NCBI GenBank assembly: GCA_948472605.1
Contig: CAOKUH010000002.1
Span: 1 to 33,174 of the forward strand
Direction: 5' to 3'
DNA from: an uncultured Mycoplasmatota bacterium
GTDB lineage: Bacteria > Bacillota_I > Bacilli_A > RF39 > UBA660
DNA: 33,174 bases
Made by a program: the position numbers and the translations under genes. Positions 11,645 through 33,174 of this stretch are shown piece after piece. Position 1 is the stretch's first letter; every line of letters starts with the position of its first letter. Below the pieces are notes generated by a model that was not told the origin of the DNA, made no database searches, and saw nothing but the letters and a program-made list of their open reading frames with translations.

Positions 11645-11750
11645 TTTATGTCAAAGACGAAACAATACAAAATTGGATTTTGACATCAGATAATGCTCGT
11701 CCAACATCTTGGACAACAGAAAATGTAATTATAAAAATATAATATTATAT

Positions 11751-11790: not shown

Positions 11791-11861
11791 AAAAAAGTTT
11801 GCTTATAAAAAAAGGAAATATCAAATTTGCAGTGTATATATATAGTAGGAGGCAAAATAAA

Positions 11862-14341: not shown

Positions 14342-14351
14342 GGTATTAAAA

Positions 14352-14489: not shown

Positions 14490-14498
14490 GGAGGATTT

Positions 14499-14654
14499 AT
14501 GAATTTAAATGAAACTGAATTATTTTGCATAAAAGGTGGAGCTATAACCTCAACTTTCCTAAATTCTGTTGCTAGAGTTATAACTACAATTTTAGATTTA
14601 GGAAGAACAGTAGGTTCTTCAATTAGAAGAATTTATAGTAAAAATTATTGTTAA
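14499..14654 (+). CDS. double-glycine-leader bacteriocin precursor B (51 aa; not in the ORF track)
   Basis: Translation: MNLNETELFCIKGG|AITSTFLNSVARVITTILDLGRTVGSSIRRIYSKNYC. The leader has L-12, E-8, L-7, I-4, G-2, G-1. A strong AGGAGG RBS sits 4 nt before the ATG. The gene starts 9 nt after peptide A. Confidence 0.8.
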   Translation: MNLNETELFCIKGGAITSTFLNSVARVITTILDLGRTVGSSIRRIYSKNYC

Positions 14655-14720
14655 CTATATTGCTTAAATAAATTAATTATTATATAATTAATCTAGTTTA
14701 AGAATAGAGGAGGGATATAT

Positions 14721-16263: not shown

Positions 16264-16290
16264 AAATTCACCAATAAATAATATGTTTTA

Positions 16291-16319
16291 TTGTAGTTTA
16301 AAAGAACTTGTGGTAAAAT
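16291..16319 (+). promoter_or_regulatory. putative sigma-A promoter for lemA-DUF2207
   Basis: TTGTAG (16291-16296), 17-nt spacer, TAAAAT (16314-16319) with TGg immediately upstream (extended -10). It lies 26 nt before the lemA start. Confidence 0.45.
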
Positions 16320-16344
16320 GTAAAATATAAGGAGGCATTACAAT

Positions 16345-16893
16345 ATGTGGAAATGGATTATATTAGCAGTAGTAGTTTTAATAGTTTTGTTTGTTATAGC
16401 TACATATAATAAGTTAGTGGTTTTAAGAAATAGAGTAAGAGATCAATGGGCACAAATTGATGTTCAATTAAAAAGAAGATTTGATTTAATACCTAACTTA
16501 GTAGAAACTGTTAAAGGTTATACTAAACATGAAAGTGAAACTTTAGAAAATGTCGTAAAAGCAAGAAATACCTTTTTAAGTGCTACAACACCTGAAGCTG
16601 AAATGGAAGCAGATGGTGAACTTACTAAGGCTATATCTAAACTTTTTGCTTTAACAGAAAGTTATCCTGATTTAAAAGCTAATACTAATTTTATTGATTT
16701 GCAAAATGAATTACAACAAACTGAAGATAAAATCGCAAGTGCTAGACAATTTTATAATGATATCGTCTTAACTTACAATAACAAAATTCAAGTTGTACCA
16801 AGTAATATTATTGCATCAATATTTAATTTTAAAAAAGAAGCATTTTTCGAAGCAAACGCTACGGAAAGAGAGAATGTACAAGTTAAATTTTAA
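16345..16893 (+). CDS. lemA: LemA family membrane protein
   Basis: N-terminal TM helix, then the LemA blocks YNKLVVLRNRVRDQWAQIDVQLKRRFDLIPNLVETVKGY, SYPDLKAN and ARQFYNDIVLTYNNKI. Confidence 0.92.
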   Translation: MWKWIILAVVVLIVLFVIATYNKLVVLRNRVRDQWAQIDVQLKRRFDLIPNLVETVKGYTKHESETLENVVKARNTFLSATTPEAEMEADGELTKAISKLFALTESYPDLKANTNFIDLQNELQQTEDKIASARQFYNDIVLTYNNKIQVVPSNIIASIFNFKKEAFFEANATERENVQVKF

Positions 16894-16934
16894 GCTAAGA
16901 TGCTTAAAATTTTCTTTTTAAAAGGAGATAATAT

Positions 16935-18818
16935 ATGAAAAAAATACTGATTATAGTGATTTCTATTTTTTTATTTATACCTAGTATTAAAAATGCAGAT
17001 TCAGTTAATTACACTATTGAAAATTATTATATAGATGCTGATATTAGAGAAAATGGAGATTTAGAAGTTACAGAGTTAATTGTCTTAAAAGGAAGTTTTA
17101 ATGGTTATATAAGAGATATAGTTTATAAAAATAATAGTTTAGGTAATAGTGGATATGCCAATAATAAAATATATAATGCAAGCGATATAGAATTAATAGA
17201 TATATCTGCTAAGAATGTAAAAAATGTTTCTTTTGAAACAATAAATGATCAAGATTATAAAAGTTTAAAAGTAAATCAAGCATCAAATTTAGGCTATTTA
17301 GAGAATGATATTGTTAATGGTAAAAGTTATAAAATGTATTATAAGTCTAATCATGATAAAGTGGCTTTTAAATTAAAATATATTGTTAAAGATGTTGTTG
17401 TACTTCATAATGATGTTGCAGAGGTTTATTGGATGTTTATAGGAAAAGAATACGATGATAAGATTAATGACTTAAAAATAAAAGTAAATCTTCCTAAATA
17501 TGATGATTCGAAAAGCTTTAGAGTATGGGCTCATGGAGAACTATCAGGAGAAATAAAGATGCATGATAATAGTTATATAATGGCAAGTGTTTCCTTTATA
17601 AATGCCTATGAACCAGTTGATATTAGAACTACTTTTGATAAATCATTAGTAAATGAATTTTTAATCGCTAAAAAAAGTAATGATAATGCTTTAGATAATA
17701 TTATAGAAGTTGAAAACTTAAGAGCAGATGAAGCAAATCAAAAAAGAAAACAAATGAAAGTTATATATAATACTTTTAAATTTGGTTCAATAATTTATTT
17801 TGGAGCTTTGATTGTTGCATGGATATTAGTTTATCTTAAGTATGATAAAGAATATAAAAGTACTTATAAAAATGAATATAATAGAGAATTTATTGATGAG
17901 TATAATGTTGAGGTAGTAGATTACTTAATGAATAAAAATATAACTCCTAATGCTCTTAGTGCATCTATTATGAACTTAATCTATAAAAAAGTAATTAAAG
18001 TAGAAGAAATACCCACAACTAAAAATAAAAAAGATTATAAATTTATTCTTATAGATGAAACAAATGTTAATGAAACAGAAAAGTATTTAATAGATTTTTT
18101 ATTTAATAAAGTAGGAAAAGATAATAGTTTTACTTCAAAAGAACTTCATAATTATGCTAAAAATACTACAACTTGTGAAAAGTTTGGAAAAAGTTATACT
18201 ACTTGGAAAAATAAAGTAATAAATGATGGTATAAAAGAAAACTTTTTTGAAAAAAAGGGAAAAAGTTATGCTATAAGTGGTTTATTTTTTCTCGTAGCAA
18301 TTATTATAGTTATTTTAGCTTTAGTATTTAATGTTGTAATGCCTTTTGTATTTATTAATTTGATTTTTTCTCTTATTTTTCTTTTATATACTTTTGCATT
18401 TTTTAAAAGAACTAAAAAAGGTAATGAAGATTTTGCTAAATGGAAAGCGTTTAAAAAGTTTTTGAATGATTTTGGAAGATTTGATTTAAAAGAATTACCA
18501 GAGGTTATTTTATGGGAACGTTACATGGTATATGCTACTATTTTTGGTTTAGCTTCTAAAGTCTCTAAGTGTATGAATGTTAAAATAAAAGAGTTAGAAG
18601 AAAGTGGCATTTATGTTGGAGGATATTATCCAAGTTTTAATGATTTTTATGTTTTTAATTCACTAAATCATGTATTTACTAATGCTATAAATTCCAATAG
18701 TACAGCAATCACTGAAAAACGTGCTAACTCAATTTCTTCCAGTGGCTCTGGTTTTGGCGGAGGATTTTCGGGAGGTTCAGGCTTCGGTGGCGGTGGTGGA
18801 GGCGGCCGAGGTTTTTAA
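16935..18818 (+). CDS. DUF2207 domain membrane protein with Gly-rich C-terminal tail
   Basis: Signal peptide, a large extracytoplasmic N-domain and central/C-terminal TM helices, with a terminal SSSGSGFGGGFSGGSGFGGGGGGGRGF tail. This is the usual partner architecture found downstream of lemA. Confidence 0.8.
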   Translation: MKKILIIVISIFLFIPSIKNADSVNYTIENYYIDADIRENGDLEVTELIVLKGSFNGYIRDIVYKNNSLGNSGYANNKIYNASDIELIDISAKNVKNVSFETINDQDYKSLKVNQASNLGYLENDIVNGKSYKMYYKSNHDKVAFKLKYIVKDVVVLHNDVAEVYWMFIGKEYDDKINDLKIKVNLPKYDDSKSFRVWAHGELSGEIKMHDNSYIMASVSFINAYEPVDIRTTFDKSLVNEFLIAKKSNDNALDNIIEVENLRADEANQKRKQMKVIYNTFKFGSIIYFGALIVAWILVYLKYDKEYKSTYKNEYNREFIDEYNVEVVDYLMNKNITPNALSASIMNLIYKKVIKVEEIPTTKNKKDYKFILIDETNVNETEKYLIDFLFNKVGKDNSFTSKELHNYAKNTTTCEKFGKSYTTWKNKVINDGIKENFFEKKGKSYAISGLFFLVAIIIVILALVFNVVMPFVFINLIFSLIFLLYTFAFFKRTKKGNEDFAKWKAFKKFLNDFGRFDLKELPEVILWERYMVYATIFGLASKVSKCMNVKIKELEESGIYVGGYYPSFNDFYVFNSLNHVFTNAINSNSTAITEKRANSISSSGSGFGGGFSGGSGFGGGGGGGRGF

Positions 18819-18822
18819 AAAT

Positions 18823-18850
18823 TTGACAATTTTAATTTTTAAAGTATAAT
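18823..18850 (+). promoter_or_regulatory. near-consensus sigma-A promoter
   Basis: TTGACA (18823-18828), 16-nt spacer, TATAAT (18845-18850). It lies 49 nt upstream of the 18900 start. Confidence 0.55.
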
Positions 18851-18899
18851 ACTCCTATCTAAAAAGTTATAATAAGGAAGTTATTTAAGGAGAAAAAAT

Positions 18900-20276
18900 A
18901 TGTATATTGAAATTGGAATAAAAGTATTAAATACTAGTAAAGAAGAGATAAAAGAAATCTTATGTCAGAATTTATTAAAAGAAGGAAAATATTTTGAATT
19001 AATGGAAGTTTCAGAAAAGTCTTTTTATAAGCAATTAAAAAATATCCAAAAAAAGGATATAGAATTCGAAATAGGAAAAAAACGTCGATTTAATATACAT
19101 GCTATAAAAGAAAGTATAAAAAGAAAAATTAAATTGGGTATTTTTATAGCTTTATTTAGCATTTATATAAAAGCAAATTGGATAACTTTCTTAACTAAAC
19201 AAATAAATCAAATAAATATAGAAAATATTTATGATAATGAAGATTTAAGAAAATTAGAACAAATAAAAAAGCAATATCAAGATGATATTTCAAAGTACGC
19301 TGATGAAATAAATGAATTAAACCTTGAAGATTTAGAAATAATTATAAAAGAAATGGCCGATATGTGGAAAAATATATATGGTTATAAGAGTCCAAACTTT
19401 TTATATGATGAAAAAGGAATATTTCAATATAACCTTTATTACACCAATTATGGAGTATGTCGTGAGTTTGCTTCAGATTGTGCTGTTAGATTAAACGAAA
19501 TTAATTCTTCCTATAATGCCCAAGCTGTTGCAGTTAAATTTAAAGATGTTTATCTAAACGATTTACCACGTAATATTTTTGGTGAAACAGAAAAAAGTGC
19601 AGAAAACTCGTTTTTAAGTGAGTTATTATTGAATTTAATAATAAAAGAAATGGGAAATCATATGGTAGTTTTACTAACTATTCCTGATAAAAATTATACA
19701 TTATTAATAGATCCAACGAATCCTTCAATTGGACTAGTAGATAATGGTAATATTTATATATTTGGTTCTAATCAAGTTTACAAAGATTATATGGAATTTG
19801 TTGATGTAAATTATTATAAAAATTGGGATGAATTTTTTAATTATTGCAAATTGAAAATTCAAAGTTATTTTAATGGAGTAACACCTAATGAACTTTTAGA
19901 AGAGTATGGAATAGATAATCAAAATAAAACTTTAAATGAAGTAGCAAATATTGAAACTAAATATCGTACGTTTAGTGGGGATATGCTAACTAGTGTTATT
20001 AAGGATGAAGCTTGTGGATATGAAACATATACCGAAAATGATACAATTGTTATAAAACCAATTGATATTGAATTAATAGAAACTACTACTATTTCTGAAG
20101 CTTTATATCATGTTGTTAATTTACAGGTTAAAAATGATATAAATGTAAAAAAGATTCAAGTTTATAGTTATAATGAAGATATTGATTTAGATAAGATAGA
20201 TTTTAATAGAGAGCAAATATTTTGCAATATATTAGATGGTCTAAATAATTCTTATTCTCACATATTAAAAAAATAG
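18900..20276 (+). CDS. hypothetical membrane-anchored protein, possible transglutaminase/papain-like Cys-His-Asp fold
   Basis: AAGGAG RBS. TM helix LGIFIALFSIYIKANWITFL. Ordered candidate triad YGVCREFASDCAVRL ... GNHMVVLLTI ... LLIDPTN. The fold assignment is an inference from motif order only. Confidence 0.5.
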   Translation: MYIEIGIKVLNTSKEEIKEILCQNLLKEGKYFELMEVSEKSFYKQLKNIQKKDIEFEIGKKRRFNIHAIKESIKRKIKLGIFIALFSIYIKANWITFLTKQINQINIENIYDNEDLRKLEQIKKQYQDDISKYADEINELNLEDLEIIIKEMADMWKNIYGYKSPNFLYDEKGIFQYNLYYTNYGVCREFASDCAVRLNEINSSYNAQAVAVKFKDVYLNDLPRNIFGETEKSAENSFLSELLLNLIIKEMGNHMVVLLTIPDKNYTLLIDPTNPSIGLVDNGNIYIFGSNQVYKDYMEFVDVNYYKNWDEFFNYCKLKIQSYFNGVTPNELLEEYGIDNQNKTLNEVANIETKYRTFSGDMLTSVIKDEACGYETYTENDTIVIKPIDIELIETTTISEALYHVVNLQVKNDINVKKIQVYSYNEDIDLDKIDFNREQIFCNILDGLNNSYSHILKK

Positions 20277-20366
20277 TATAAAAAATCTATATGAAAGAAA
20301 TTGAAGTTAATTAATTTCTTTTTTTTAAATATTTGGTATGGTAAAATTATTTTAAGAGGAGAAATT

Positions 20367-20999
20367 ATGCAAAAGTTAATAGATGGCGAGATAGTAGATG
20401 TAATAATTATTCATAAAAATAATAAAAATATTTATTTACGTTTTAAAGAAGATAAAAAATTATATGCAACATGTAATAAATTTGTTAAAGAAAAAGATAT
20501 TGAAAAATTAATTGATGATAATATAATTAAAATAACTAATATGTATAGGGAAATAAAAAAACTTAGCTATAATAATTTATTTTTTAGTTATTTAGGTAAA
20601 AAATATACTATAGTTTATAATGAAAATGTAAAAGAACCATATTTTGATGAAGATTTCATATTTGCTAGAAATGAAAGAAACTTACAAAAATTTTATCAAA
20701 AAGAAACAATCAGAATATTTAACTTAGAAGTTGAAAGAATAATTCCTTATTTTAAAAACATTCCTAAATTTTCCTTGAAAATACGTAATATGAAAACTAG
20801 ATGGGGTGTTAATAATCGAGGAAATAATACGATTACTTTAAATAGTGAACTTTTGAAAAAAGATATTGATCTTTTAGATTATGTTATAATTCATGAGTTA
20901 TGCCATTTTTATGAAGCTAATCATAGTAGTAAATTTTGGGCACATGTTGAAAAATATTATCCTAAATACAAAGAAGCTAGAAAGAGATTAAGGAGTTAA
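20367..20999 (+). CDS. DUF45 / YgjP-like (M48-related) zinc metallopeptidase family protein
   Basis: C-terminal block RWGVNNRGNNTITLNSELLKKDIDLLDYVIIHELCHFYEANHSSKFW with HExxH. The ATG at 20367 has an AGAGGAG RBS. The TTG at 20301 in the ORF track is an extension. Confidence 0.8.
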   Translation: MQKLIDGEIVDVIIIHKNNKNIYLRFKEDKKLYATCNKFVKEKDIEKLIDDNIIKITNMYREIKKLSYNNLFFSYLGKKYTIVYNENVKEPYFDEDFIFARNERNLQKFYQKETIRIFNLEVERIIPYFKNIPKFSLKIRNMKTRWGVNNRGNNTITLNSELLKKDIDLLDYVIIHELCHFYEANHSSKFWAHVEKYYPKYKEARKRLRS

Positions 21000-21004
21000 G
21001 AAAA

Positions 21005-21724
21005 ATGAAAATAGAATCATTAACTAATACTCATGTTAAAGAGTGGGTTAAATTAAAAAATAAAAAATATCGTGATGAAGTAGGTTTATTTCTTATTGAA
21101 GGAGACCATTTAATTAATGAGGCTAGGAAAAAGAATTTGATTAAAGAAATAATTTCAATAACTAATGAACAGGCGGATTTTTATGTAACTAAAGAAATTA
21201 TGAAGAAAATAAGTAGCCAAGTAAGTATTGCAAATAATATAGCTGTTTGTTATAAAATTAAAGAACAAGAATTAAAGGGAAACATTGTTTTGTTAGATAA
21301 CATTCAAGATCCAGGTAATTTAGGAACAATAATTAGAAGTGCTGTTGCTTTTGGTTTTAAAAATATAATTTTAAGTGATGATACAGTTGATTTATATAAT
21401 GATAAAGTAATTAGAGCCAGTGAGGGAATGATTTTTCATATTAATGTCTTAAGAAAGAATTTAGAACTTTTTTTAGAAGAGTTAAAACAAAATTATCAAA
21501 TACTTATCACAGATGTTATGCAAGGAGAAAACATAAAAAAAATTAAACATACTAAAAATATAGCTTTAATTATAGGAAATGAAGGTAATGGGGTAAAAGA
21601 TAATTTGAAAAAATATGCTAATAATTTTGTTAAAATAAATATGGATGAAACTTGCGAATCGTTAAATGCTTCAATAGCTGCAAGTATCTTAATGTATGAA
21701 ATAATGGAGAGTAAAAATGAATGA
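21005..21724 (+). CDS. TrmH/SpoU family RNA 2'-O-methyltransferase
   Basis: SPOUT motifs LDNIQDPGNLGTIIRSAVAFGF, LIIGNEGNGV and ESLNASIAASILMYE. Confidence 0.9.
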   Translation: MKIESLTNTHVKEWVKLKNKKYRDEVGLFLIEGDHLINEARKKNLIKEIISITNEQADFYVTKEIMKKISSQVSIANNIAVCYKIKEQELKGNIVLLDNIQDPGNLGTIIRSAVAFGFKNIILSDDTVDLYNDKVIRASEGMIFHINVLRKNLELFLEELKQNYQILITDVMQGENIKKIKHTKNIALIIGNEGNGVKDNLKKYANNFVKINMDETCESLNASIAASILMYEIMESKNE

Positions 21725-22211
21725 TTTTATTTTAATAGGAAAAATTGTAAATACACATGGAATTAAAGGAGAAGTTAAAATACTTAGTGATTTTGAATAT
21801 AAGGAAAGAGTATTTAAGCCTAATATAGAAATATATATTGGAAAGGATAAGAATAAAGAAGTAATTAAAACTTATCGTCATCATAAACAATTTGAAATGA
21901 TTACTATGGATGAATATAGTAATATTAATGAGGTATTAAAGTATAAAAGTCAAAATGTTTATGTTAAAAGAAGTATTTTAGAATTAAACTCAAATGAGTA
22001 TTTATATGAAGATTTAATTGATATGGAAATAATAGAAGATAAAAAAGTATTAGGTAAAATTAAAGATATCGTGTATAATAAAAACAATATATTATTATAT
22101 ATTAAAGGAGAAAAATATTTTTATATTCCTCTTAATAATGAATATGTTAAAAATGTTGATCTGGTAAATAAAAAAGTTTTGGTTGATGGGGGGTCTAATT
22201 TAATATTATGA
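21717..22211 (+). CDS. rimM: 16S rRNA processing protein RimM
   Basis: ILIGKIVNTHGIKGEVKI N-terminal barrel motif plus a PRC-like C-terminus. It overlaps the upstream gene by 8 nt and trmD by 4 nt (ATGA). Confidence 0.9.
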   Translation: MNDFILIGKIVNTHGIKGEVKILSDFEYKERVFKPNIEIYIGKDKNKEVIKTYRHHKQFEMITMDEYSNINEVLKYKSQNVYVKRSILELNSNEYLYEDLIDMEIIEDKKVLGKIKDIVYNKNNILLYIKGEKYFYIPLNNEYVKNVDLVNKKVLVDGGSNLIL

Positions 22212-22870
22212 AGATTGATATATTAACCCTTTTTCCAGGAATGTTTGAAGGTTTCTTAAATGAATCTATTATTAAAAGGGCTATAGATAAAAAAGTTGTA
22301 GAGATAAACCTTGTTAATTTTCGCGATTTTTCTAAATTAAATAATAGTCAAGTGGATGATACACCATATGGAGGAGGTTCGGGGATGGTTTTGATGCCTG
22401 GACCAATTGTCGATGCTATAGATGCCTATAGAAAGCCTTTTACAAAAGTAATACTCATGTGTCCTCAAGGTAAGGTATATAATGAACGAAAAGCTCATGA
22501 ATTAAAAGAAGAGAAACATATAATTTTAGTTTGTGGCCATTATGAAGGTTTTGATGAAAGAATTAGAGAATTTGTCGATGAAGAAATAAGTATAGGTGAT
22601 TATATCTTAACTGGGGGAGAAATACCTGCTATGGTTGTAAGTGATAGTATTATAAGATTATTAGATGGTGTTATAAAAAAAGAATCTTATTTAGAAGAGT
22701 CATTTACTAATAATCTGCTTGATTATCCAGTTTATACTAAGCCAAGAAATTTTAGAGGATTTAAAGTTCCTGATATCTTGCTTAGTGGAGATCATAAGAA
22801 AATAGATGAATGGCGTAAAAGCGAACAACTGAAAAAAACCGAACAAAAAAGAATTGATTTATTAAAGTAG
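22208..22870 (+). CDS. trmD: tRNA (guanine37-N1)-methyltransferase TrmD
   Basis: MKIDILTLFPGMF, DDTPYGGGSGMVL, LVCGHYEGFDERI and SIGDYILTGGEIPAMV. Confidence 0.97.
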   Translation: MKIDILTLFPGMFEGFLNESIIKRAIDKKVVEINLVNFRDFSKLNNSQVDDTPYGGGSGMVLMPGPIVDAIDAYRKPFTKVILMCPQGKVYNERKAHELKEEKHIILVCGHYEGFDERIREFVDEEISIGDYILTGGEIPAMVVSDSIIRLLDGVIKKESYLEESFTNNLLDYPVYTKPRNFRGFKVPDILLSGDHKKIDEWRKSEQLKKTEQKRIDLLK

Positions 22871-22880
22871 GGTGAAATTT

Positions 22881-23330
22881 ATGGAAAATTATATAATAAA
22901 AAAACGTAATAAAAATAAAAAGATAAGCAAATTCGATTTTGAAGAAACAGGATATGTTTTTAAACCAAATATTAAAAGTAAAAACTTAATTGAAATAACT
23001 AATTTGTCTATTTTAAATGTTGAATTGACTAATGTTATTTTAAAGAAAAAATTAGATAAATCTTTTCGTAAATTAGCAAGAATTATTTTAAGTGTTTTGA
23101 AAGATGAAGAAAGTAATAGTGGAGACATTCTTATTGCTTTAGATGAATTAGCTAAAGAAAAAAGTATTATTACTAGAAAGTATAAAGAATATCTAAAAAA
23201 AGAAGAAAGAGATAAATATTTAAAAAGATTAAATCTTTTAGAAGCGCAATTAAAAGAAAAGTTATTTTATTTGAATTTGATAGAAGAAAGAAAAAGAGCT
23301 GAAACTATGGAAAAAGGTCATAGTAGGTAA
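22881..23330 (+). CDS. hypothetical Lys/Glu-rich, probably coiled-coil protein
   Basis: ORF immediately after trmD. The ATG at 22881 has a GGGTGA RBS-like sequence 6 nt upstream (the ORF-track GTG at 22872 is the alternative). No recognisable motif. Confidence 0.55.
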   Translation: MENYIIKKRNKNKKISKFDFEETGYVFKPNIKSKNLIEITNLSILNVELTNVILKKKLDKSFRKLARIILSVLKDEESNSGDILIALDELAKEKSIITRKYKEYLKKEERDKYLKRLNLLEAQLKEKLFYLNLIEERKRAETMEKGHSR

Positions 23331-23429: not shown

Positions 23430-23545
23430 AAAAAAGTGGTGAATCCAGCCATTAAATTGGAACTTAAAAAAGCGGTGAATCCAGCCATTAAATTGGAACT
23501 TAAAAAAGCGGTGAATCCAGCCATTAAATTGGAACTTAAAAAAGT
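23430..23545 (+). ncRNA. toxI: ToxI-like type III antitoxin RNA: 3 full + 1 partial tandem 36-nt repeats
   Basis: Exact 36-nt period: copies at 23430-23465, 23466-23501 and 23502-23537, with an 8-nt partial copy at 23538-23545. The unit is AAAAAAG(T/C)GGTGAATCCAGCCATTAAATTGGAACTT, and only one substitution (T in copy 1, C in copies 2 and 3) was seen. The array is noncoding and sits directly upstream of a terminator and a ToxN-family gene. Confidence 0.85.
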
Positions 23546-23580
23546 AAGATTAGAGACTCAACTCTAATCTTTAGTTATTT
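23546..23580 (+). terminator. hairpin terminator/attenuator between the repeat array and toxN
   Basis: 10-bp stem AAGATTAGAG (23546-23555) / CTCTAATCTT (23562-23571) with a 6-nt loop, followed by the interrupted T tract TAGTTATTT. A weak tail fits a leaky terminator, as described for ToxIN loci. Confidence 0.7.
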
Positions 23581-23605
23581 ATGATGGGAAAAGGGTTGAT
23601 ATAAA

Positions 23606-24115
23606 ATGATATTTAATTTAAAAATCGTTCAAGTAAATTCAGATTATTGTGATTATTTAAGAAAATTTGATAATCGTGTATCTTATAATAAATATGAAAA
23701 AGAATTAAGACCATTTGTGGGAATATTATTTAAAATAGATTGTTATGAATATTTTGCTCCATTATCAAGCCCTAAAAATAAACATAAAAAAATGAAAAAT
23801 ACAATTGATTTTCTTAAAATAAAAAATGGCGAACTTGGAGCTGTTAATTTTAATAATATGATACCAGTTTATGAAAAAAATTATTCTTTGATCAATTTAA
23901 ATAGAGAAAGTTTAACAAAAACAGAGTTTAAATATTGTAAATTATTAAAAGAACAATTATCTTGGTTAAATGAAAACTATGAGCAAGTAAAAAATAAATC
24001 TTCAAAACTATATAAATTATATATTGAAAAAAAATTATCTAATAATATAAAATCAAGATGTTGTAATTTTAAATTATTAGAAGAAAAATGTTTAGAATAT
24101 AATAATTATAAATAA
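23606..24115 (+). CDS. toxN: ToxN/AbiQ family type III toxin endoribonuclease
   Basis: 169 aa. Recalled similarity to Pectobacterium ToxN: YFAPLSSPKNKH vs YLAPLTSPKKWH, CNFKLLEEK vs CNFSLLEEK, and N-terminal ..SDYCDYLRKFDNRV.. vs ..SKYIEYLKEFDDKV.. Size and genetic context (repeats plus terminator upstream) also match. Confidence 0.9.
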   Translation: MIFNLKIVQVNSDYCDYLRKFDNRVSYNKYEKELRPFVGILFKIDCYEYFAPLSSPKNKHKKMKNTIDFLKIKNGELGAVNFNNMIPVYEKNYSLINLNRESLTKTEFKYCKLLKEQLSWLNENYEQVKNKSSKLYKLYIEKKLSNNIKSRCCNFKLLEEKCLEYNNYK

Positions 24116-24665: not shown

Positions 24666-25166
24666 ATGAAATCAAAAATCATAAAAAACTTAAAAGAGTT
24701 GTTACCTTATATAGTAATACTATTAATAGTTATTTTAATAAGAACCTTTATTGCTACCCCTATAAAAGTGAATGGAAGTTCTATGTATAAAACCTTAGAT
24801 GGCTCAGAATTTATGATTTTAAATAAACTAGCCAAAATTGAGAGATTTGATATCATTGTATTAGATACTAATGATGATGAATTAATAAAAAGAGTATATG
24901 GCTTACCAGGAGAAAAAATAGCTATTGAAAATAATAATATTTATGTAAATGATAAAAAGATAGAAGATATTTATGCAACTGGAGAAACAAGTGATTATGA
25001 ATGCATTACTTTAAAAGACGATGAATACTTTGTCTTAGGAGATAATAGAAAAATATCTTTAGATAGTAGAACGATAGGTCCAATCAAAAAGAATCAAATA
25101 AAGGGAACAACTAATTTTATAATTTATCCTTTTAATCGTTTTGGTATACTGGAAAAAAATAAATAA
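24666..25166 (+). CDS. lepB: signal peptidase I
   Basis: N-terminal TM helix, catalytic Ser box VNGSSMYKTL, Lys box IKRVYGLPGEKI and VLGDNRKISLDSR. Confidence 0.92.
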   Translation: MKSKIIKNLKELLPYIVILLIVILIRTFIATPIKVNGSSMYKTLDGSEFMILNKLAKIERFDIIVLDTNDDELIKRVYGLPGEKIAIENNNIYVNDKKIEDIYATGETSDYECITLKDDEYFVLGDNRKISLDSRTIGPIKKNQIKGTTNFIIYPFNRFGILEKNK

Positions 25167-25351
25167 AAAGTAGTAATTATGAAAATAAATAAAAAGGGTT
25201 TAAATTAAATAGTTTTAAAATTTTATTCTTGTATTTTTACTTATATGTGAAATTGTTCCATTACTCCCTTTTTATATAAATTAAAATTCTTATTAAGACT
25301 TGTAAAAAGTAAATTAATAAAAATAAAAAATATTTAGGAGAGTTAGGGAAA

Positions 25352-25849
25352 ATGAATGAAAATTATGAAAAAAAATTATATGGACTAAATGATATTTTTA
25401 ATTCTAAAGAAAAATATACAATATCATTTCAACAAAATGGTTATATTTGGGACTATGAAGAATTAATTACTTTATTAGAAGAGGTTAAAAATATAAGTAA
25501 AAGTGATAAGGAATATTGTTTAGGAACATTATTTGTTGTTAAAAATAATGATGGCTACGAAGTTATTGAAGGTCATCAAAGATTTATAAATATTTATATA
25601 TTATTAAATTGTTTAGGGATAAATACTAATAGTATTTTAAAATTTACTTATTGTGAAAAGTCTAATTATACTTTAAATAATATAAAAAGTATAATATCTA
25701 GTATGGAATTAAATGATGATACTGATGAAAACATTTTAAGTACGATAAAAATTTTTAATCAAGAGATAGTTAAAAAAGATTTTAATAAAGAAGAATTCAA
25801 GAAAAAATTAGAAAAAACAGTTGTTTGTTTAGTTTTAGTATCTGCTTAG
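25352..25849 (+). CDS. DUF262-like (ParB/GmrSD N-terminal nuclease-related) protein, short and probably truncated/degenerate
   Basis: YTISFQQNGYIWDYEELITLLEEV and YEVIEGHQRFINIYILL follow the DUF262 pattern (Y.IP.YQR.Y.W ... L..D; IIDGQQRLTT), but with QR->QQ and DGQQR->EGHQR substitutions. At 165 aa it lacks any C-terminal (DUF1524/HNH-like) part. Confidence 0.5.
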   Translation: MNENYEKKLYGLNDIFNSKEKYTISFQQNGYIWDYEELITLLEEVKNISKSDKEYCLGTLFVVKNNDGYEVIEGHQRFINIYILLNCLGINTNSILKFTYCEKSNYTLNNIKSIISSMELNDDTDENILSTIKIFNQEIVKKDFNKEEFKKKLEKTVVCLVLVSA

Positions 25850-25901
25850 TTTTTCTTTTCTTTTTCTTGAAAATAAGTATAATATAGGATAGTGATGATT
25901 T

Positions 25902-27698
25902 ATGAAACCAGAAAAAATTCGAAATTTTTCCATTATTGCTCATATTGATCATGGAAAGAGTACCCTTGCTGATCGAATCTTAGAAATAACTGGAGCTGTC
26001 GAAAAAAGAGAAATGGTTAGTCAAGTTTTAGATAATATGGATTTAGAACGTGAAAGAGGTATAACTATTAAGTTAAATGCGGTACACTTAAATTATAAAT
26101 ATAATAATGAAGAATATATTTTAAATTTAATAGATACTCCAGGTCATGTCGATTTTTCTTATGAAGTTTCTAGAAGTCTTGCGGCTTGTGAAGGAGCTAT
26201 TTTAGTTGTTGATGCTGCCCAAGGTATAGAAGCCCAAACTCTTGCTAATTTATACTTAGCTTTAGAACAAGATTTGACTATAATTCCAGTAATTAATAAA
26301 ATTGATTTACCAAATGCTGATGTTACGAGAGTAAAAGAAGAATTAAAAAATGTTTTAGGTTTTAAAGAAGAGGATATACTTTTATGTAGTGGTAAAACTG
26401 GTGTAGGTGTAAAAGAACTAATAGAAGCGATAATAACTCGTATTAAACCACCAGAGAATAATTTAAATAAACCATTACGAGCTTTAATATTTGATTCATA
26501 TTTTGATCCTTATAAAGGGGTTGTTGCTCTTGTAAAAGTTGTAGATGGAAAATTAACCAATAAAGATACGATTTTAATGATGGCAAATAATAGCAGTTTT
26601 GAAATTACGGAGATAGGTGTTCATACTCCGAAAGAAAAAAAGTTAAATTCCTTAGAAAGCGGCGAAGTAGGATATATATGCGCTAGTATAAAAGATATTA
26701 CAAGTGTGGAAGTTGGAGATACTATAACCTTGTTTAATAATAAAGCAACAAAAGAATTAGCAGGATATAAAAAGATGAAACCAATGGTTTATTCTGGGTT
26801 GTTTCCAGTTGAACCTAATCAATATGAAAGTCTAAAAGAAGCAATTGAAAAATTAAAACTAAATGATGCAGCGTTAACTTTTGAACCTGAGACTTCAGAG
26901 GCTTTAGGATTTGGCTTTAGAACAGGTTTTTTAGGTCTTTTACATATGGATATAATAATAACTCGATTAGAAAGAGAATTTAATATACCGGTAATTGCGA
27001 CAAGTCCAAGTGTAGTATATAAGGTAACTAAAACTAGTGGTGAAGTAGAGAATATTGATTCACCAACTAATATGCCAAATTCTACTAATATTAAAATGAT
27101 TGAAGAGCCTTATATATATACTAACATAATAGTTCCAAGTGAATATATTGGACCAATTATGGAATTATGTCAAAATAAACGAGGAATATATAAATCTTTA
27201 GAATATATTGATGAAGAAAGGGTTAATATTCACTATGAAATTCCTTTATCAGAAATCGCTTATGATTTTTTTGATAAATTAAAAAGTACAACTAGAGGGT
27301 ATGCTTCGTTTGATTATGAATTATGTGGATATAAAGCCTCTAATTTAGTTAAAATGGATATTTTATTAAATGGCGAAATTGTTGATGCATTATCAGTCAT
27401 TGTTCATAAAGATTTTGCTTATAATAGAGGACAGGCTATTACTTTAAAATTAAAAAACATTATTCCTCGTCAGATGTTTCAAATACCTATTCAAGCTAGT
27501 ATTGGATCTAAAGTAATTGCCAGAGAAAATATAAGTGCTATGAAGAAAAATGTTTTAGCTAAATGTTATGGTGGAGATGTTTCAAGAAAAAGAAAACTTT
27601 TAGAAAAACAAAAAGAAGGAAAGAAAAAAATGAAAATGCTAGGAAGTGTTGAAGTACCAAAAGAAGCATTCTTAAGTATTTTAAAAGAAGAGGGGTAG
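25902..27698 (+). CDS. lepA: elongation factor 4 (LepA)
   Basis: [28 protein letters not shown] and NKIDL GTPase motifs, plus the LepA-specific C-terminus ...[25 protein letters not shown]. Confidence 0.98.
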
Positions 27699-27704
27699 GC
27701 TTAT

Positions 27705-28751
27705 ATGAAGTTTACTATTGATGACATTGAAAAATTTATATTTTCTGGAGAAAGCAAAAAAGACATTGCTACTAAGCATAATATATCATTATATTGGATT
27801 GAAAAATTAATAAACGATTTAAAAATTATAGATGTTGAACGTTATAATAGCCTAATAGCTAAATTACAAGAAAATGTTAAATTAAGAAGAGCAGAAATTA
27901 TAAAAGAAGAAAATAAGAAATTAAATAGTATCTTTAAAAATAATTCTGTTAATAAATATGCTAAAATGTTAGCAAATGGTGGTATTTCATTTTTAGAAGC
28001 GGCAAGACAATCAAATTATACAATATTATCTTTTATAAAATATTTAAATGAAGTAAAAAATGAAGAATATGCGAATAAATTACAACAAGTTTTAAAAGAC
28101 TTTAATTTAGATTTTAGAAATGAATCAAAACCATTAAAAAGTTTATTAGATTATTCTTTACAAATTCGAGAAGAAATAGTTTTAGTTGCTCTTACTTATA
28201 GAGTATCTTTAAAAACATTAGCTAAATTATTTCATACAACATACAAAGACATTATTAACTTATTTATATCGTTCGATAAACTTGAAGATAGTTTAGGATA
28301 TTTAGTTTTAGAAACTTTAAATGAAGATAGCACTACCGAAAAAGTAGCTTTACATTATGCCACAAAATATTTTCAAGAAAGAAAAGATTTAGTTTTAAAA
28401 AAATTGCCATTAAATGATTTATATGCAAAAATTTATGATTTTAGAGTGTTTGCAACAATTGGTAAACATGCGAGTGAGTTAACAGAGGAAGAAAGAGATT
28501 TAATAGCAAGATATCCTGTAAAATATTATGTTCCTATAGAAGCTTTTGCTATAGACTTAAAAAGAGATCAAGATTTAATTATAAATTGTATGGAAAGTTT
28601 AGCCAAAAGAAATCCTATTTTTGAAGATAAAGTTACGAGTTATAAATTGATAAACCAAAGTATGTCTAATTCCTATATAATTAATACCGAAATACCTTTT
28701 TATAATCGGACAAAACCCGATATTGATATCGCTTCAAGTATAAAAAAATAA
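27705..28751 (+). CDS. paralog 1 of an uncharacterised multi-HTH-like repeat protein family
   Basis: 348 aa, starting 6 nt after the lepA stop with a GAGGGG RBS. It shares four ordered modules with the next two genes. Examples are GGISFLEAARQSN, REEIVLVALTYRVSLKTLAKLF, LVLETLNEDS and EEERDLIARYPVKYYVPIEAF...MESLAKRNPIFEDK. Confidence 0.8.
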   Translation: MKFTIDDIEKFIFSGESKKDIATKHNISLYWIEKLINDLKIIDVERYNSLIAKLQENVKLRRAEIIKEENKKLNSIFKNNSVNKYAKMLANGGISFLEAARQSNYTILSFIKYLNEVKNEEYANKLQQVLKDFNLDFRNESKPLKSLLDYSLQIREEIVLVALTYRVSLKTLAKLFHTTYKDIINLFISFDKLEDSLGYLVLETLNEDSTTEKVALHYATKYFQERKDLVLKKLPLNDLYAKIYDFRVFATIGKHASELTEEERDLIARYPVKYYVPIEAFAIDLKRDQDLIINCMESLAKRNPIFEDKVTSYKLINQSMSNSYIINTEIPFYNRTKPDIDIASSIKK

Positions 28752-28893
28752 AAGATATAAAATTGAATTAGATATTAAATTTATGGAAAATGAAACCCAA
28801 TAAAAACATCTTTTTTTTGCTAATTGGTTTATTTAAATAAGATTACAGATGAATAGGCTAGTATAAACGCCTAGTTAAAAGGAGTAAAAAAAT

Positions 28894-30016
28894 ATGGAAG
28901 AGTTAAGTATAGATTATATTGAAAATTTAGTATTTGAAGGTAAACTTATAAAAGAAATAGTCTCTATTAGTAATAAAACAGAAAGTGTTATTAAAAGAAT
29001 AATTGATGGTTTAATTAATACAGAAAGTGGATATTATGATGTGGCTCGTTATAAAAGACTAAAGAAAAAAATAAATGAAAATAAATATAAATATAGACAA
29101 TTTAAAAAAGTAGTCGCTAATGATAATGCACATATAAAAAATCTTCCAATTAATAAGTTTGTTTTAGAATTTGCTTATGGAGAAATATCTTTTTTAGAAG
29201 CAGCAACAAGTTCTTCTACTGGACCATTATTTTTTGTTAAATATTTAAATAATATATCTGATGAAGAAATAAGAAATAGAGTCTTACCAATTTTAGAAGA
29301 ATTAGGTCTTTTGCCTGATAAAACAAAAGCTAGTTTTTTACTTTCATTGCCTATTAAAGTTCAAAAAGAAATCATTTTGATGGGCTCTAACTTATCGTGT
29401 ATCTTTAAAATCACTTGCTAAAATACTTAACACTATCGTTATAGATGTGTTAGATCTTTTTCTATCTTTTAATGATTTACAATTAGGACTTGATAATTTA
29501 TTTTTAGAAACATTTGATGAAGATGAAATTTCTTCTAAATTAGCCTATTATAAAGCATTATCTTATTGGAAAGAACGTAATAGAATTTTAAGAAGTATTA
29601 ATGAAATGAAAATAGAGCTTAATTCAGATAAAAATATAAGCGATAATAAAGATAAGATAAGCGAAATTGCAGATAATTTAGAAAGTTTAAAATTGGAAAG
29701 AAAGCAATTATATAGTGCAATTGACGATACACCTTTAAAAGCATCTATAGGTAAAAATGTCATTTTTTTAACTCAAGAAGAAAAAGATTTGATAGCTAGA
29801 TATCCTCTTAAATATTATATATCTCTAAATAGATGTTATGATGAACTAAAAAGAGGAAGACCATTAATTATGAGTTGTATAGAGGACTTAGCAAAACGAG
29901 ATGTAATATTTAATGAAAAGATAGAAAAATATTTGGAAAAATATCAAGAATATAGATATAGTGCCATTTTTAAAACAAGTCTAGGAGGAGAGCTTAATGG
30001 ACGAAAAACTCATTGA
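28894..30016 (+). pseudogene. paralog 2 of the same family, interrupted by a 1-nt frameshift (ORFs 28894..29421 and 29447..30016)
   Basis: Frame 1 reads ...VQKEIILMGSNLSCIFKITC*. Shifting by one nt at the GGG run (29382-29384) gives ...IILM-ALTYRVSLKSLAKILNTIVIDVLDLF..., which matches the conserved VALTYRVSLKTLAKLF / VALTYRVSFKSLAKMF blocks of paralogs 1 and 3. The second frame is open from 29384 onwards. Confidence 0.75.
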
Positions 30017-31289
30017 TTATATTGAACAATCTATAATGGATGGGAAACATATAAATTCTATAAGTAATGATTTAGAACTAAATAGATATTATATTTATAA
30101 AGAAATAAAAGCTTTAGATAAGCCAGAAACAATTGATAGATATAATAAAATAAAAGACCAGATTAAAATTAATAGCAGAAAAGGAAGAAATCCAATTATT
30201 GCTCCTGAAGAATATGGAAATTATATTGATGATATTGAACGTTGCATTTTTGAGGGGCATTTATATAAAGAAACTGCAAAATTAATTAATATTTCTCGAA
30301 ATTATGTTAATTTAATAATTGAAGATTTAAATAATTCAAATTCAAGTATATATGATGAAGAGCGTTATAAAGCTATAAAAGAACAACACAATAAGTTAAT
30401 GGCTTTAAAGTTCGCTGAAGGTGGAAAAAGAGGTAAAAATAATTATCTTAAAAAGGCAGTCGTTTTACCTTATGAAAAATATATTGACTTAATAGTTTCA
30501 GGTAAAATGTCTATTCTAGAAGCAGTTAAATTATCCAATGCTAAAACTTTAGACTTAATTATTTATTTAATTAATATCAAAGATTCAGAAATCCAAGAAA
30601 AATTGTATCCTATACTAAATGAATTTGATGTCTTTTTAAATTTTAATAACGGAAAAAATAAACCTTTAAAAAATAAATCACTAAAAGTTCGTCAAGAAAT
30701 TATTTTAGTAGCGTTAACATATCGCGTTTCTTTTAAATCTCTTGCTAAAATGTTTCGGACAAGTGTTTTAGATATTATAGAAAGTTTTAGAAATTGTGGA
30801 TATTATATCTATAGTTTAGATAAACTATTTTTAGAAACTTTACATGAGGATGAAAATTATGAAAAATTGGCTTTTGCTAATGCTGTAAAATATTTTAATG
30901 AAAGAAAGAGGCTTTTAGAACTAATAGAATATTATAAAATACAAAAAGACCAAGAAAAAGTTAAAGAATTAAGAATGGAACTTAAAAATTTACGAGAGTT
31001 AGTTGACGACACTATAGTAGAAAGAACAATTTATAAAAATGTTAATGATTTAAGTAATGTAGAAAAAGATCTTATTGCTAAATATCCACTTAAATATTTT
31101 GTATCTTTAAAAGAAGCAGGAAGAATATTAAAAAGAGATTATTTATTAATAGCCAAATATATTGAAGATTTATCTGAAAGAAATATTATATTTAAGGAAA
31201 AGATGCAAATTCATGATGCAAAATTTCAGGAATTACATGCAAATTATCGTTATCCAACCCATTTTGATAATAATAGTCCCAAAAGATAA
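29997..31289 (+). CDS. paralog 3 of the same family, with duplicated N-terminal module
   Basis: 430 aa. The GGAGGAG RBS lies inside the end of paralog 2 (20-nt overlap). There are two consecutive copies of module 1 (LIDYIEQSIMDGKH...IDRYNKIKDQ and YIDDIERCIFEGHL...DEERYKAIKEQ). The shared blocks follow: MSILEAVKLSN, RQEIILVALTYRVSFKSLAKMF, LFLETLHEDE and EKDLIAKYPLKYFVSLKEA...IEDLSERNIIFKEK. Confidence 0.8.
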   Translation: MDEKLIDYIEQSIMDGKHINSISNDLELNRYYIYKEIKALDKPETIDRYNKIKDQIKINSRKGRNPIIAPEEYGNYIDDIERCIFEGHLYKETAKLINISRNYVNLIIEDLNNSNSSIYDEERYKAIKEQHNKLMALKFAEGGKRGKNNYLKKAVVLPYEKYIDLIVSGKMSILEAVKLSNAKTLDLIIYLINIKDSEIQEKLYPILNEFDVFLNFNNGKNKPLKNKSLKVRQEIILVALTYRVSFKSLAKMFRTSVLDIIESFRNCGYYIYSLDKLFLETLHEDENYEKLAFANAVKYFNERKRLLELIEYYKIQKDQEKVKELRMELKNLRELVDDTIVERTIYKNVNDLSNVEKDLIAKYPLKYFVSLKEAGRILKRDYLLIAKYIEDLSERNIIFKEKMQIHDAKFQELHANYRYPTHFDNNSPKR

Positions 31290-31299
31290 GGAATAAATT

Positions 31300-31515
31300 A
31301 TGAATAAAGAAGAGTTAATTATAATGTTAATAGAAGCTTTAGGAAATGCTAAAACTATTGATGATGTTAAAGCAGTATTTTTTATGATGCTTGAACAAAA
31401 ATTAAGTGCAGATGATATGATTGTGATTTTAAAAGATATGAAACTTCGAGCAGATATTTTAGAAAGAATAAATGAATCTGAGGGGATTGTAAGAAAAAAG
31501 CAGGTGAAAATATAA
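31300..31515 (+). CDS. hypothetical 71-aa helical protein
   Basis: AAGGA RBS. Its stop overlaps the hemW ATG (TAATG). The antisense 95-aa ORF (31233..31520) has Ser/Ile/Phe-rich, antisense-like composition, so the + strand ORF is preferred. Confidence 0.55.
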   Translation: MNKEELIIMLIEALGNAKTIDDVKAVFFMMLEQKLSADDMIVILKDMKLRADILERINESEGIVRKKQVKI

Positions 31516-32606
31516 TGCAAGATAGTAAAGGTTTATATATTCATATTCCATTTTGTAAAACAATTTGTTCTTATTGTGATTTTTGTAAAGTTTTTTATAA
31601 TGATGATTGGGCATTTAATTATTTAAATGCTTTAACAAAAGAGATTTTAGATAATTATCGTAATGAAGAAATTGAAACAATTTATATTGGTGGTGGAACT
31701 CCTTCAAGTTTATCTTCTAAACATTTAATTAGATTATTTAAAATGTTAAAGTATTTTAATATTAAAAATTTAAAAGAATTTACTTTTGAATGTAACTTAA
31801 ATGATATTAATTCTGAGCTTTTAGAAATATTAAAAAGTGCGGGAGTAACAAGATTAAGTATAGGAATAGAATCTTTTAATTTAGATAAATTGAAACTAAT
31901 GAATAGAAATCACACTTTTATAGATGCTAAGGTAAGAATGAAATTATGTCGTGATTATGGATTTAACAATATAAATATAGATTTCATATATGGCTTTTCT
32001 ATAGATACTATAAAATCTGTTAAAGAAGATCTAAAAAAGATAATTAGTTTGAATCCTGAGCATATTAGTACTTATAGTTTGTTATTAGAAAAAAATACAT
32101 TACTATATTTAGAAAACCAAACCAGATTAAATGAAGATGAAGATGCAAAATTATACGAAATGATTTGCAAAATACTTAAGAAAAATAATTATATCCATTA
32201 TGAAGTAAGTAATTTTGCCAAAAAAGGGTATGAATCTAAACATAATTTACTTTACTGGTGTAATAGAGAATATTATGGGTTTGGTCTTTCTGCTTCTGGC
32301 TATATTGATAAAATAAGATATACTAATACTTTATCTTTAACTAATTATTTAAAAGGTATTTATTCTTTGGAAAAAGATTTATTAACGACTAAAGATATAA
32401 TGGATAATCATTTAATGTTAGGATTTAGATTAACTAATGGTTTTAATATAGAAGAATTTGAGAAAATCTACAATGTTAAGTTAGAAGATGAGTATCCTAT
32501 TAAACCCTTATTAAAAAATGGAGATTTAATACAAAAAAAAGGCAATATTTTTATAAATCCGGATAAACTATATATTATGAATGAGATTTTACTTAAAATG
32601 ATATAG
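31515..32606 (+). CDS. hemW: radical SAM heme chaperone HemW (HemN-like, oxygen-independent coproporphyrinogen oxidase family)
   Basis: GLYIHIPFCKTICSYCDF (CxxxCxxC), IYIGGGTPS, RLSIGIESF and a HemN C-terminal-like region. Its position after lepA supports the call. Confidence 0.92.
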   Translation: MQDSKGLYIHIPFCKTICSYCDFCKVFYNDDWAFNYLNALTKEILDNYRNEEIETIYIGGGTPSSLSSKHLIRLFKMLKYFNIKNLKEFTFECNLNDINSELLEILKSAGVTRLSIGIESFNLDKLKLMNRNHTFIDAKVRMKLCRDYGFNNINIDFIYGFSIDTIKSVKEDLKKIISLNPEHISTYSLLLEKNTLLYLENQTRLNEDEDAKLYEMICKILKKNNYIHYEVSNFAKKGYESKHNLLYWCNREYYGFGLSASGYIDKIRYTNTLSLTNYLKGIYSLEKDLLTTKDIMDNHLMLGFRLTNGFNIEEFEKIYNVKLEDEYPIKPLLKNGDLIQKKGNIFINPDKLYIMNEILLKMI

Positions 32607-32617
32607 AGGTGAAAGAT

Positions 32618-33094
32618 TTGAAAAAAATTTGTCTTTTCTTTTTGGTATTATTTTTAATTCCTACTTATGTAAATGCTAAAGATTTGGTTTTAAGCGAACT
32701 AAATATTTTAAATGGAGAGATATCTCCTAAGTTCGAACCATTAAATAATTCTTATACAATTATTTTAGATAAAGATGTGTATAATGTTGAATTTGACTAT
32801 AAAAAAGATGATGATATTGAAATAGAAATAGTTAATAATTTTGATTTAGAAAATAATTCATCAGTTGAAATAGTTTTAAGGTATGAGAAAAACGTAGTTA
32901 AATATCATTTTCAAATTTTAAAGGAAGTGGAAGAAAATATAAATCTAACATTCTTAGAAACAAATGATATTGTTGAGAATAATTTTATGTTTGAATATAA
33001 AAATTATATTATACCTAGTACTTGTATAATTTTGATTGTTATTGTTAATAGAGTTTTATTTCATAAGAAAAAACAAAGACGTAAAAAACATTAG
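32618..33094 (+). CDS. exported, C-terminally anchored protein with cadherin-like beta-sandwich-type domain
   Basis: Signal peptide MKKICLFFLVLFLIPTYVNA if the TTG at 32618 is used (8 nt after GAGG); the ORF-track GTG at 32609 is the alternative. LSELNILNGEISPKFEPLNNSYTIILDKDVYNVEF fits the L..L.v..G.L.P.F.p....Y.v.v pattern. C-terminal TM helix plus KKKQRRKKH. Confidence 0.55.
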   Translation: MKKICLFFLVLFLIPTYVNAKDLVLSELNILNGEISPKFEPLNNSYTIILDKDVYNVEFDYKKDDDIEIEIVNNFDLENNSSVEIVLRYEKNVVKYHFQILKEVEENINLTFLETNDIVENNFMFEYKNYIIPSTCIILIVIVNRVLFHKKKQRRKKH

Positions 33095-33174
33095 GTTAAG
33101 ATAAAAAATTTACGCTTTAATTTTGCATTAGTCAAGTAAAAGTAGACAATATATTAAAAAAACATGGGGGATTT

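Follow-up and report, generated by a model that had tools for sequence, protein, structure and literature searches.

SpoIIID, the transcription factor that acts in the mother cell during sporulation of Bacillus and Clostridia, is a protein of about 93 amino acids (aa) with a single domain. It binds DNA through a helix-turn-helix (HTH) and a C-terminal basic region (PMC3789822). In Bacillales, furthermore, the genes lepA and hemN are documented as neighbours. Both descriptions bear on the subject of this work, an array of three genes, here called A, B and C, which lies between lepA and hemW in a stretch of 33,174 nucleotides (nt) from an uncultured Mycoplasmatota bacterium; this whole stretch is what we name the window. 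The proteins of the family to which A, B and C belong consist of one to three N-terminal SpoIIID-type modules fused to a core of about 190 aa with two more HTH-like units, and of a short basic tail. The core, the whole architecture and the family are undescribed in the libraries that we searched, the HTH module being of a known type. We give a probability of about 0.5 to the view that A, B and C are clade-specific DNA-binding regulators, expressed within the lepA-hemW operon.

The reasons for bringing SpoIIID into the picture come from the N-terminal half of the proteins. A sequence-only reading of the same DNA had recognized four ordered HTH-like modules in each of them, and had likened these to sigma-70 region 4 or to the HTH of LuxR-type proteins. 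The modules are there: an AlphaFold2 model of A, computed from an alignment of 66 sequences, is all-helical (predicted local distance difference test, pLDDT, 91.9; predicted template modelling score, pTM, 0.76) and displays one three-helix unit per module, at aa 5-42, 96-132, 152-188 and 261-302, together with long helices (aa 44-90, 209-231 and 304-329) and a disordered tail. The proposed kinship is not, since modules 1 and 2 are instead, by their profile matches, HTH domains of the SpoIIID type. The Pfam profile for SpoIIID (PF12116) matches a subgroup of relatives (L005, L008, P0053 and P0060) over two stretches, above its gathering score, with E-values from 2.5e-14 to 3e-16; the bit scores are 59.7 for a 177-aa protein of L008 and 52-54 for P0053 and P0060, for a cutoff of 27. 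The N-terminal half of the L008 protein (module 2) matches the SpoIIID structure 2L0K in the Protein Data Bank (PDB) at E=2e-4, and a hidden Markov model (HMM) of module 1, made from 40 members that lack the Pfam match, retrieves residues 8-65 of the B. subtilis protein in the same entry (E=2e-5). The N-terminal halves of the two family subgroups are colinear (hhalign, E=7.5e-5). Finally, helices 5-13, 18-24, 29-42 and 44-90 of A match the layout of SpoIIID, in which a fourth helix and a basic region come after the HTH, with the helix at aa 44-90 as the counterpart of SpoIIID helix 4 and its basic stretch.

Modules 3 and 4 are another matter. They make up one compact, all-helical core of about 190 aa, which is also found as a stand-alone protein of about 200 aa. 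In A this core reads, in order, as an HTH-like unit, an LETxxEDE motif, long helices, an IDD motif, an HTH-like unit with an (R)YxLKY motif, and a C-terminal helix. The sequence-only reading had proposed structure prediction followed by Foldseek; the outcome is confident models (pLDDT 97.4 and pTM 0.91 for the core-only protein P0040) with no significant neighbour in the PDB, the best E-values being 1.1 for A and 1.6 for P0040. A profile search of the PDB likewise finds no match for the core, all matches being confined to the N-terminal HTH. When the four modules are compared with one another by hhalign, their similarity is of a generic HTH level only (probabilities of 5-66%), and a derivation of modules 3 and 4 from modules 1 and 2 is not shown by this comparison. 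With an isoelectric point (pI) of 8.6-9.0 the proteins are mildly basic; they have conserved basic positions at the R of ALTYRxS, in RYRLKY and at the terminal K/R, and with conserved acidic features, namely the LETxxEDE patch and one position in the third helix of module 3. No enzymatic domain was found in the array proteins, as had been anticipated.

The three genes are true paralogs, as the earlier reading held. A and C align by BLASTP over 347 aa with 38% identity (E=2e-50), the alignment of A, C and a repaired B is colinear over all four modules, and two DNA segments, of 109 nt and 74 nt, each recur in three in-register copies spaced by about 1.29 kb. The decayed copy and the internal duplication that had been pointed out were also found again. 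B is frameshifted at a GGG run, where a 97%-identical contig of the same species, L001, has GG and an intact open reading frame (ORF) of 365 aa; a programmed frameshift was rejected, as there is no slippery site and L001 is simply one G shorter. The duplication is in C, which the module-1 HMM matches twice (aa 3-59, independent E-value 1e-7; aa 68-133, 3e-24), A and B being matched once each. The L001 contig shows a further loss. Its copy of A lacks 90 nt at 7690-7700, equivalent to window positions ~28094-28178 (30 aa, comprising the linker and the first helix of module 3). The missing segment is bounded exactly by AGTTTTA direct repeats, and the loss could be either a true slippage deletion or an artefact of assembly. 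The broken lepA and hemW of this contig were dismissed as assembly artefacts, the contig containing 72 N as well as small gaps where blocks join.

The ORF map reproduces the coordinates and the layout of the array that had been described (Table 1). All its genes are on the strand of lepA, tightly spaced, with Shine-Dalgarno sequences of their own. A starts 6 nt after lepA, its Shine-Dalgarno sequence GAGGGG residing within the 3' end of lepA; B and C overlap by 20 nt; the stop codon of a 71-aa ORF and the start of hemW share a TAATG overlap. The G+C content is about 24% throughout, in the array and its flanks alike.

Table 1. The lepA-hemW array of the window, and the form taken by the family at related loci.
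Feature	Position	Strand	Description
lepA (EF4)	25902-27698	+	598 aa; ORF map, Pfam GTP_EFTU/LepA_C in orthologues; first gene of the operon
Paralog A	27705-28751	+	348 aa, intact; four three-helix units linked by long helices
A, module 1	27705-27833	+	aa 1-43, SpoIIID-type HTH (profile-based)
A, module 2	27978-28103	+	aa 92-133, second SpoIIID-type HTH (profile-based), more degenerate
A, core domain	28146-28694	+	aa ~148-330, modules 3 and 4
A-B spacer	28752-28893		142 nt; the sole sizeable gap of the array
Paralog B	28894-30016	+	two ORFs (28894-29421 and 29447-30016), +1 frameshift; 373 aa once repaired
GGG run breaking B	29382-29384	+	from comparison with L001 (GG there)
Paralog C	29997-31289	+	430 aa, intact; strong AGGAGG Shine-Dalgarno
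C, module-1 copies	30003-30173 and 30198-30395	+	module-1 HMM
71-aa ORF	31300-31515	+	mildly acidic, function unassigned
hemW	31515-32606	+	363 aa; Pfam Radical_SAM (1e-23) and HemN_C
L002, L005, L014, L015			one copy each
L012, L019			two copies each
Window, L004			three copies each, one of them broken in each
L003			98-aa remnant and one copy
L006			two fragments and one copy
L007			279-aa form without modules 2-3
L008	98-1264		split, HTH then core: SpoIIID-like 177-aa gene and 205-aa core gene
L017	1617-2703		split, core gene first, then HTH gene
L019	2605-4230		full-length copy, then core-only copy

To place the array in a wider context, every locus that was fetched was scored with the core HMM, the module-1 HMM, lepA and hemW. 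At 13 of 14 distinct loci the order is lepA, then one to three units made of one to three copies of module 1 and a core, then hemW. These loci include L017 and L019, whose lepA is only 75-77% identical to that of the window. The slot between lepA and hemW is therefore ancestral to a clade, and the family is no recent insertion in the lineage of the window. The lineage-specific expansion that the sequence-only reading had proposed stands for the triplication, supported by a distance tree, not for the presence of the family itself. What that reading said of an embedding in the lepA-hemW operon agrees with the single strand, the tight spacing and the lepA-hemN adjacency of Bacillales. The sole exception to the position is L013, where a distant member, P0084 (1005-1583, E=3e-5), has an amidohydrolase gene on one side and a 155-aa ORF, a XerD-like recombinase gene and tgt on the other; this may be a second genomic niche of the core domain.

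At this fixed place the form of the family differs between lineages. Copy number varies from one to three among the loci surveyed, the window having three, which bears out the expansion; moreover genes of the family have repeatedly been duplicated, have decayed, have come apart into one gene for the HTH part and one for the core, and have lost internal segments. In the distance tree A, B and C cluster together, so do the copies of L006, and L004 and L012 share an older pair, so that duplication has recurred independently. The family also evolves much faster than its neighbours. Compared with relatives, lepA is 84-87% identical and hemW 63-71%, the family proteins only 27-37%; the DNA of the window and that of its conspecific L001 are 99.4-100% identical in the flanks and 97.2-97.8% in the array. 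The ratio of non-synonymous to synonymous substitution rates (dN/dS) between these two strains is 0.63 for A, 0.53 for B and 0.49 for C, on small counts. The rapid turnover read from the window alone is thus seen across species and strains.

How widespread is the family? Libraries of known proteins (Pfam, PHROGs, NCBIfam and PADLOC-DB 2.0) were scanned with A, repaired B, C and the 71-aa ORF, and PADLOC also with P0040. Pfam and NCBIfam give no match to A, B or C at E<=1, PHROGs offers nothing better than E~0.01 for the array proteins, and PADLOC assigns no defence family to A, C, the 71-aa ORF or P0040 at E<=0.1. The proteins are, as claimed, not placeable in a characterized family. A Pfam scan of 66 members returns scattered HTH models, mostly below threshold, and no domain of unknown function (DUF). 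A word-indexed search of 5.8e9 proteins yields three matches with A as the query and eight with the family profile; an exhaustive HMMER scan of 1.84e9 cluster representatives finds 88 relatives at E<1e-3, 77 of them below 1e-10, among which are proteins of about 200 aa made of modules 3 and 4 alone. None of the relatives from the protein searches carries a name given by its source. A scan of GTDB representatives finds five loci, titled as metagenome-assembled genomes of uncultured Tenericutes or Bacilli, plus one labelled Muribaculaceae, which looks mis-binned because it has the same Bacilli-type neighbourhood. The hosts are uncultured Bacilli of very low G+C content (24-30%); gpr, spoIIP, rpsT and ylbD stand near the loci of relatives, and the host genomes therefore carry sporulation genes. 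Their source names point to animal guts. No relative was retrieved by tblastn from the INPHARED phages or the PLSDB plasmids, by a pattern scan of limited sensitivity from IMG/VR, or by pattern scans from JGI metagenome contigs. Literature searches on SpoIIID-like multi-domain proteins and on inserts between lepA and hemN brought up nothing relevant except the adjacency of these two genes.

We now come to expression. Upstream of lepA, a sigma-A-like -10 box, AGTATAAT, is found about 20 nt before the start codon and is conserved in all the relatives compared. Because the array follows lepA at near-zero spacing, has its own Shine-Dalgarno sequences and is preceded by no intervening terminator, it most likely shares a transcript with lepA and hemW, started at this conserved sigma-A-type promoter, as far as the arrangement of signals allows one to judge. 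Terminator-like sites are absent from 25000-33174, the spacer between A and B included; promoter-like sites are no more frequent than in shuffled sequences, and an Rfam scan of the window finds no RNA family. The motif AGTATAAT...GTGATGA(n3-4)ATG, at 25880-25901 of the window, is kept in L002, L004, L006, L007, L012 and L015, with an unusual GTGATG Shine-Dalgarno-like element in front of lepA instead of GGAGG.

The 71-aa ORF, which has its own Shine-Dalgarno sequence and a pI of 5.4, follows the last paralog in L002, L003, L004, L007 and L012, with 18-36% identity to the copy of the window, and is absent from L005, L006, L008, L015 and L019. Scans of Pfam, PHROGs, NCBIfam and PADLOC retrieve nothing that matches it, and inspection of its sequence reveals no signal-peptide-like N-terminus. 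It could encode a partner of the family.

With these data at hand, the following scenario may be proposed. The proteins would act as sequence-specific DNA-binding transcription regulators, their SpoIIID-type modules touching adjacent DNA sub-sites, and the core would serve for oligomerization or for the binding of a partner. Genes for the HTH part and for the core are found fused or split in either order, which argues for a joint action of both parts. As the 'recognition' helix of module 3 has a conserved acidic character, contact with DNA through this helix is unlikely. Three diverged copies in the lineage of the window might provide room for new specificities or for heteromers, with B presumably inactive now through the insertion of a single G. 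Several points weigh against this scenario. DNA binding is a prediction from homology: A, B and C themselves reach no Pfam HTH threshold, and the predicted recognition helices of modules 1-3 are poor in basic residues, the conserved acidic position of module 3 coming on top of this. A search of repeats and palindromes in 25100-31600 and of the aligned lepA upstream regions displays no candidate operator, only the promoter and the Shine-Dalgarno element being conserved. Constitutive co-transcription with lepA would follow from spacing only, and a dN/dS of about 0.5-0.6, with frequent pseudogenes, could mean that the genes are partly dispensable.

That the proteins do not bind DNA at all is a tentative alternative, which we hold to be somewhat improbable. 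They would then be adaptors tied to the neighbouring genes, with degenerate HTH-like bundles used for binding proteins or RNA; the candidate partners would be LepA (in the maturation of ribosomes), HemW (in the delivery of haem) or RNA polymerase. The strict and ancient linkage to lepA, nearly amounting to translational coupling, would find an explanation, as would the acidic helix of module 3, the invariant acidic LETxxEDE patch, the short RGG/KR tails that end many members and a core without structural neighbour among DNA-binding proteins. However, SpoIIID, to which the N-terminal modules are homologous, does bind DNA; Bacillales have lepA next to hemW with no gene of the family in between, so that neither neighbour needs it; and evolution at such speed is unusual for the partner of a protein as conserved as LepA. 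Should DNA binding be retained with low specificity, the proteins might be organizers of the chromosome or nucleoid linked to sporulation, in the manner of RacA, their HTH modules and long helices bridging or anchoring DNA. This is unlikely: no sporulation-type promoter was identified, the genes being placed behind the sigma-A-like promoter of lepA, and neither repeated pseudogenization nor a cross-species identity of 27-37% is expected of a structural chromosome protein, even if gpr, spoIIP and ylbD adjoin the locus in host genomes, if the only characterized relative of the HTH module is a sporulation factor, if the number of HTH modules varies, and if the model has a 47-residue helix and the family variable K/E-rich helical inserts between modules. 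We also see a slim chance that the core is a truly new domain, forming with the SpoIIID-type modules a two-part system, fused or split in either order and tied to the LepA/HemW operon. The paralogs and the 71-aa protein, as partners or antagonists, could make a fast-diversifying specificity system, or else a hidden conflict module that exploits housekeeping expression; in either case we would face something other than an ordinary transcription factor.

The sequence-only reading had gone some way in this direction when it took the rapid turnover as a hint of a conflict system. A defence module, or a DNA binder domesticated from a mobile element (an HTH array of a transposase or phage regulator) within a housekeeping operon, would account for the changes in copy number, the pseudogenes and the dN/dS of about 0.5-0.6. 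Module 4 has sub-threshold matches to the IS30-type HTH_38, HTH_23 and HTH_28 matches are scattered in the family, and 2-4 kb upstream the window carries a ToxIN system together with the remnant of a GmrSD gene. Foldseek also gave weak matches to phage multi-HTH proteins in BFVD (E=1.8e-3), which we dismissed, the template modelling (TM) score being only 0.17 and the root-mean-square deviation 24 Å. All this has to be set against the lack of any PADLOC match, the lack of relatives in IMG/VR, INPHARED and PLSDB, a locus devoid of catalytic domain, integrase and flanking repeats, more distant relatives that have neither ToxIN nor the GmrSD remnant at that position, and a single chromosomal slot at 13 distinct loci, which indicates vertical, syntenic inheritance. 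The hint is not supported, and a conflict module or domesticated element of this kind appears very unlikely. Hardly tenable, and largely refuted, is a highly divergent sigma-like or anti-sigma-like protein with module 4 as sigma region 4. The pattern LTxEEKxxIxxYxLKYxxS...TI...LA of this module does recall region 4, and 5 of 66 members have a sub-threshold Sigma70_r4_2 match; but in P0030, the one case where a Sigma70_r4 match was located, it is module 1 that is matched, the 25 families listed (out of 32) for the 66 members do not include Sigma70_r2, and the core, with its confident model, has no close structure in a PDB that contains many sigma factors. Membership of the sigma-70 family was rejected, the features of regions 2 and 4 being wanting and the r4/r4_2 matches staying below threshold in 3-5 members.

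If the proteins are indeed DNA-binding regulators, their likely function is ordinary, and the family alone opens no long-standing question. It would nevertheless be an undescribed family and architecture, where repeats of a SpoIIID-type HTH accompany a core whose fold is predicted with confidence and lacks structural neighbours. The family would be restricted to uncultured low-GC Bacilli of a little-known clade, apparently gut-associated and endowed with sporulation genes. The gpr-spoIIP-lepA-hemW neighbourhood is among the most conserved in Firmicutes, and the array would represent a lineage-specific regulator added to it. It would also be a clean natural case of recurrent tandem duplication, decay, fusion and fission of a regulator at a fixed locus, and the family would deserve a new Pfam or DUF entry.

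Some features of the surroundings should be added. In L002 and L012, gpr, spoIIP, a 108-aa gene, a gene of about 249 aa and lepA are contiguous, and L015 has the same order minus the ~249-aa gene. The window differs: lepA and the 109-aa ORF that follows spoIIP are about 22 kb apart (region 3668-23330), with dnaE, polC, a C39-peptidase ABC exporter, LemA/DUF2207, a SpoU-family methylase gene, rimM, trmD, rplS and lepB between them. The lineage of the window has therefore been rearranged, yet it has kept lepA, the array and hemW intact. Between a 152-aa ORF after trmD and rplS is wedged a probable type III toxin-antitoxin system, seemingly complete (23430-24115): a 36-nt tandem repeat (3.2 copies, 98% match) at 23430-23544 directly precedes an ORF for ToxN/AbiQ at 23606-24115 (Pfam ToxN_toxin 1e-49, PADLOC AbiQ 1e-38). 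The repeats have no Rfam family match. The alignment to L001 is offset in the repeat region, suggesting another number of repeats there, and the slot is occupied in that contig by ORFs of 82 and 98 aa. Just upstream of lepA, a 165-aa ORF (25352-25849), also present in L001, matches GmrSD_N/DUF262 (Pfam 1.4e-12); it covers only the N-terminal ~90-125 positions of this profile and of the PADLOC profiles HEC-06/Orf5, which have about 560 positions, and seems to represent the remains of a defence nuclease after truncation.

Coming back to described systems, the all-helical, fast-diverging, often tandem proteins with a small ORF directly downstream are reminiscent of the RNPP and Rgg regulators, such as PlcR-PapR and Rgg-SHP. 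Unlike these, the family has neither an Xre-type HTH nor the tetratricopeptide repeat (TPR) fold, and the 71-aa ORF, with no signal-peptide-like N-terminus, is missing at half of the loci. A quorum-sensing regulator of this class was rejected, HTH_3 being found in only 1 of 66 members and no RNPP structure among the Foldseek matches. Small HTH units strung on one chain are also known from paired domains, from the N-terminal HTH arrays of transposases and from 2LVS, an archaeal CRISPR-repeat-binding protein with a tandem HTH. Both HTH units of 2LVS are colinear with modules 1 and 2 of the family (E=0.002-0.016), and this analogy suggests that the family may bind adjacent DNA sub-sites; the sequence similarity is marginal, however, 2LVS ranks only 43rd in Foldseek (E=5.3), and all these arrays lack the core domain and belong to unrelated contexts. 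A derivation from the transposases of IS30 or IS630 was rejected, as the HTH_38 and HTH_23 matches are all sub-threshold and there is neither a DDE domain nor flanking inverted repeats.

SpoIIID itself remains the closest described relative. The family shares with it detectable homology to the B. subtilis protein, N-terminal modules laid out as an HTH, a fourth helix and a basic stretch, and hosts that possess sporulation genes. It differs in position, between lepA and hemW in an apparent sigma-A-type operon, and in profile matches: A, B and C stay below the threshold of the SpoIIID profiles (PF12116/TIGR02844), which relatives in the same slot exceed. It differs above all in size, since SpoIIID-type proteins are small (~85-95 aa) and those of the family, to which an unrelated core of about 190 aa has been added, have 348-540 aa, with two to four SpoIIID-type modules; the window proteins, of 348-430 aa, each combine two or three SpoIIID-like modules with this core. 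The members of the family thus have domains of the SpoIIID type without being orthologues of SpoIIID.

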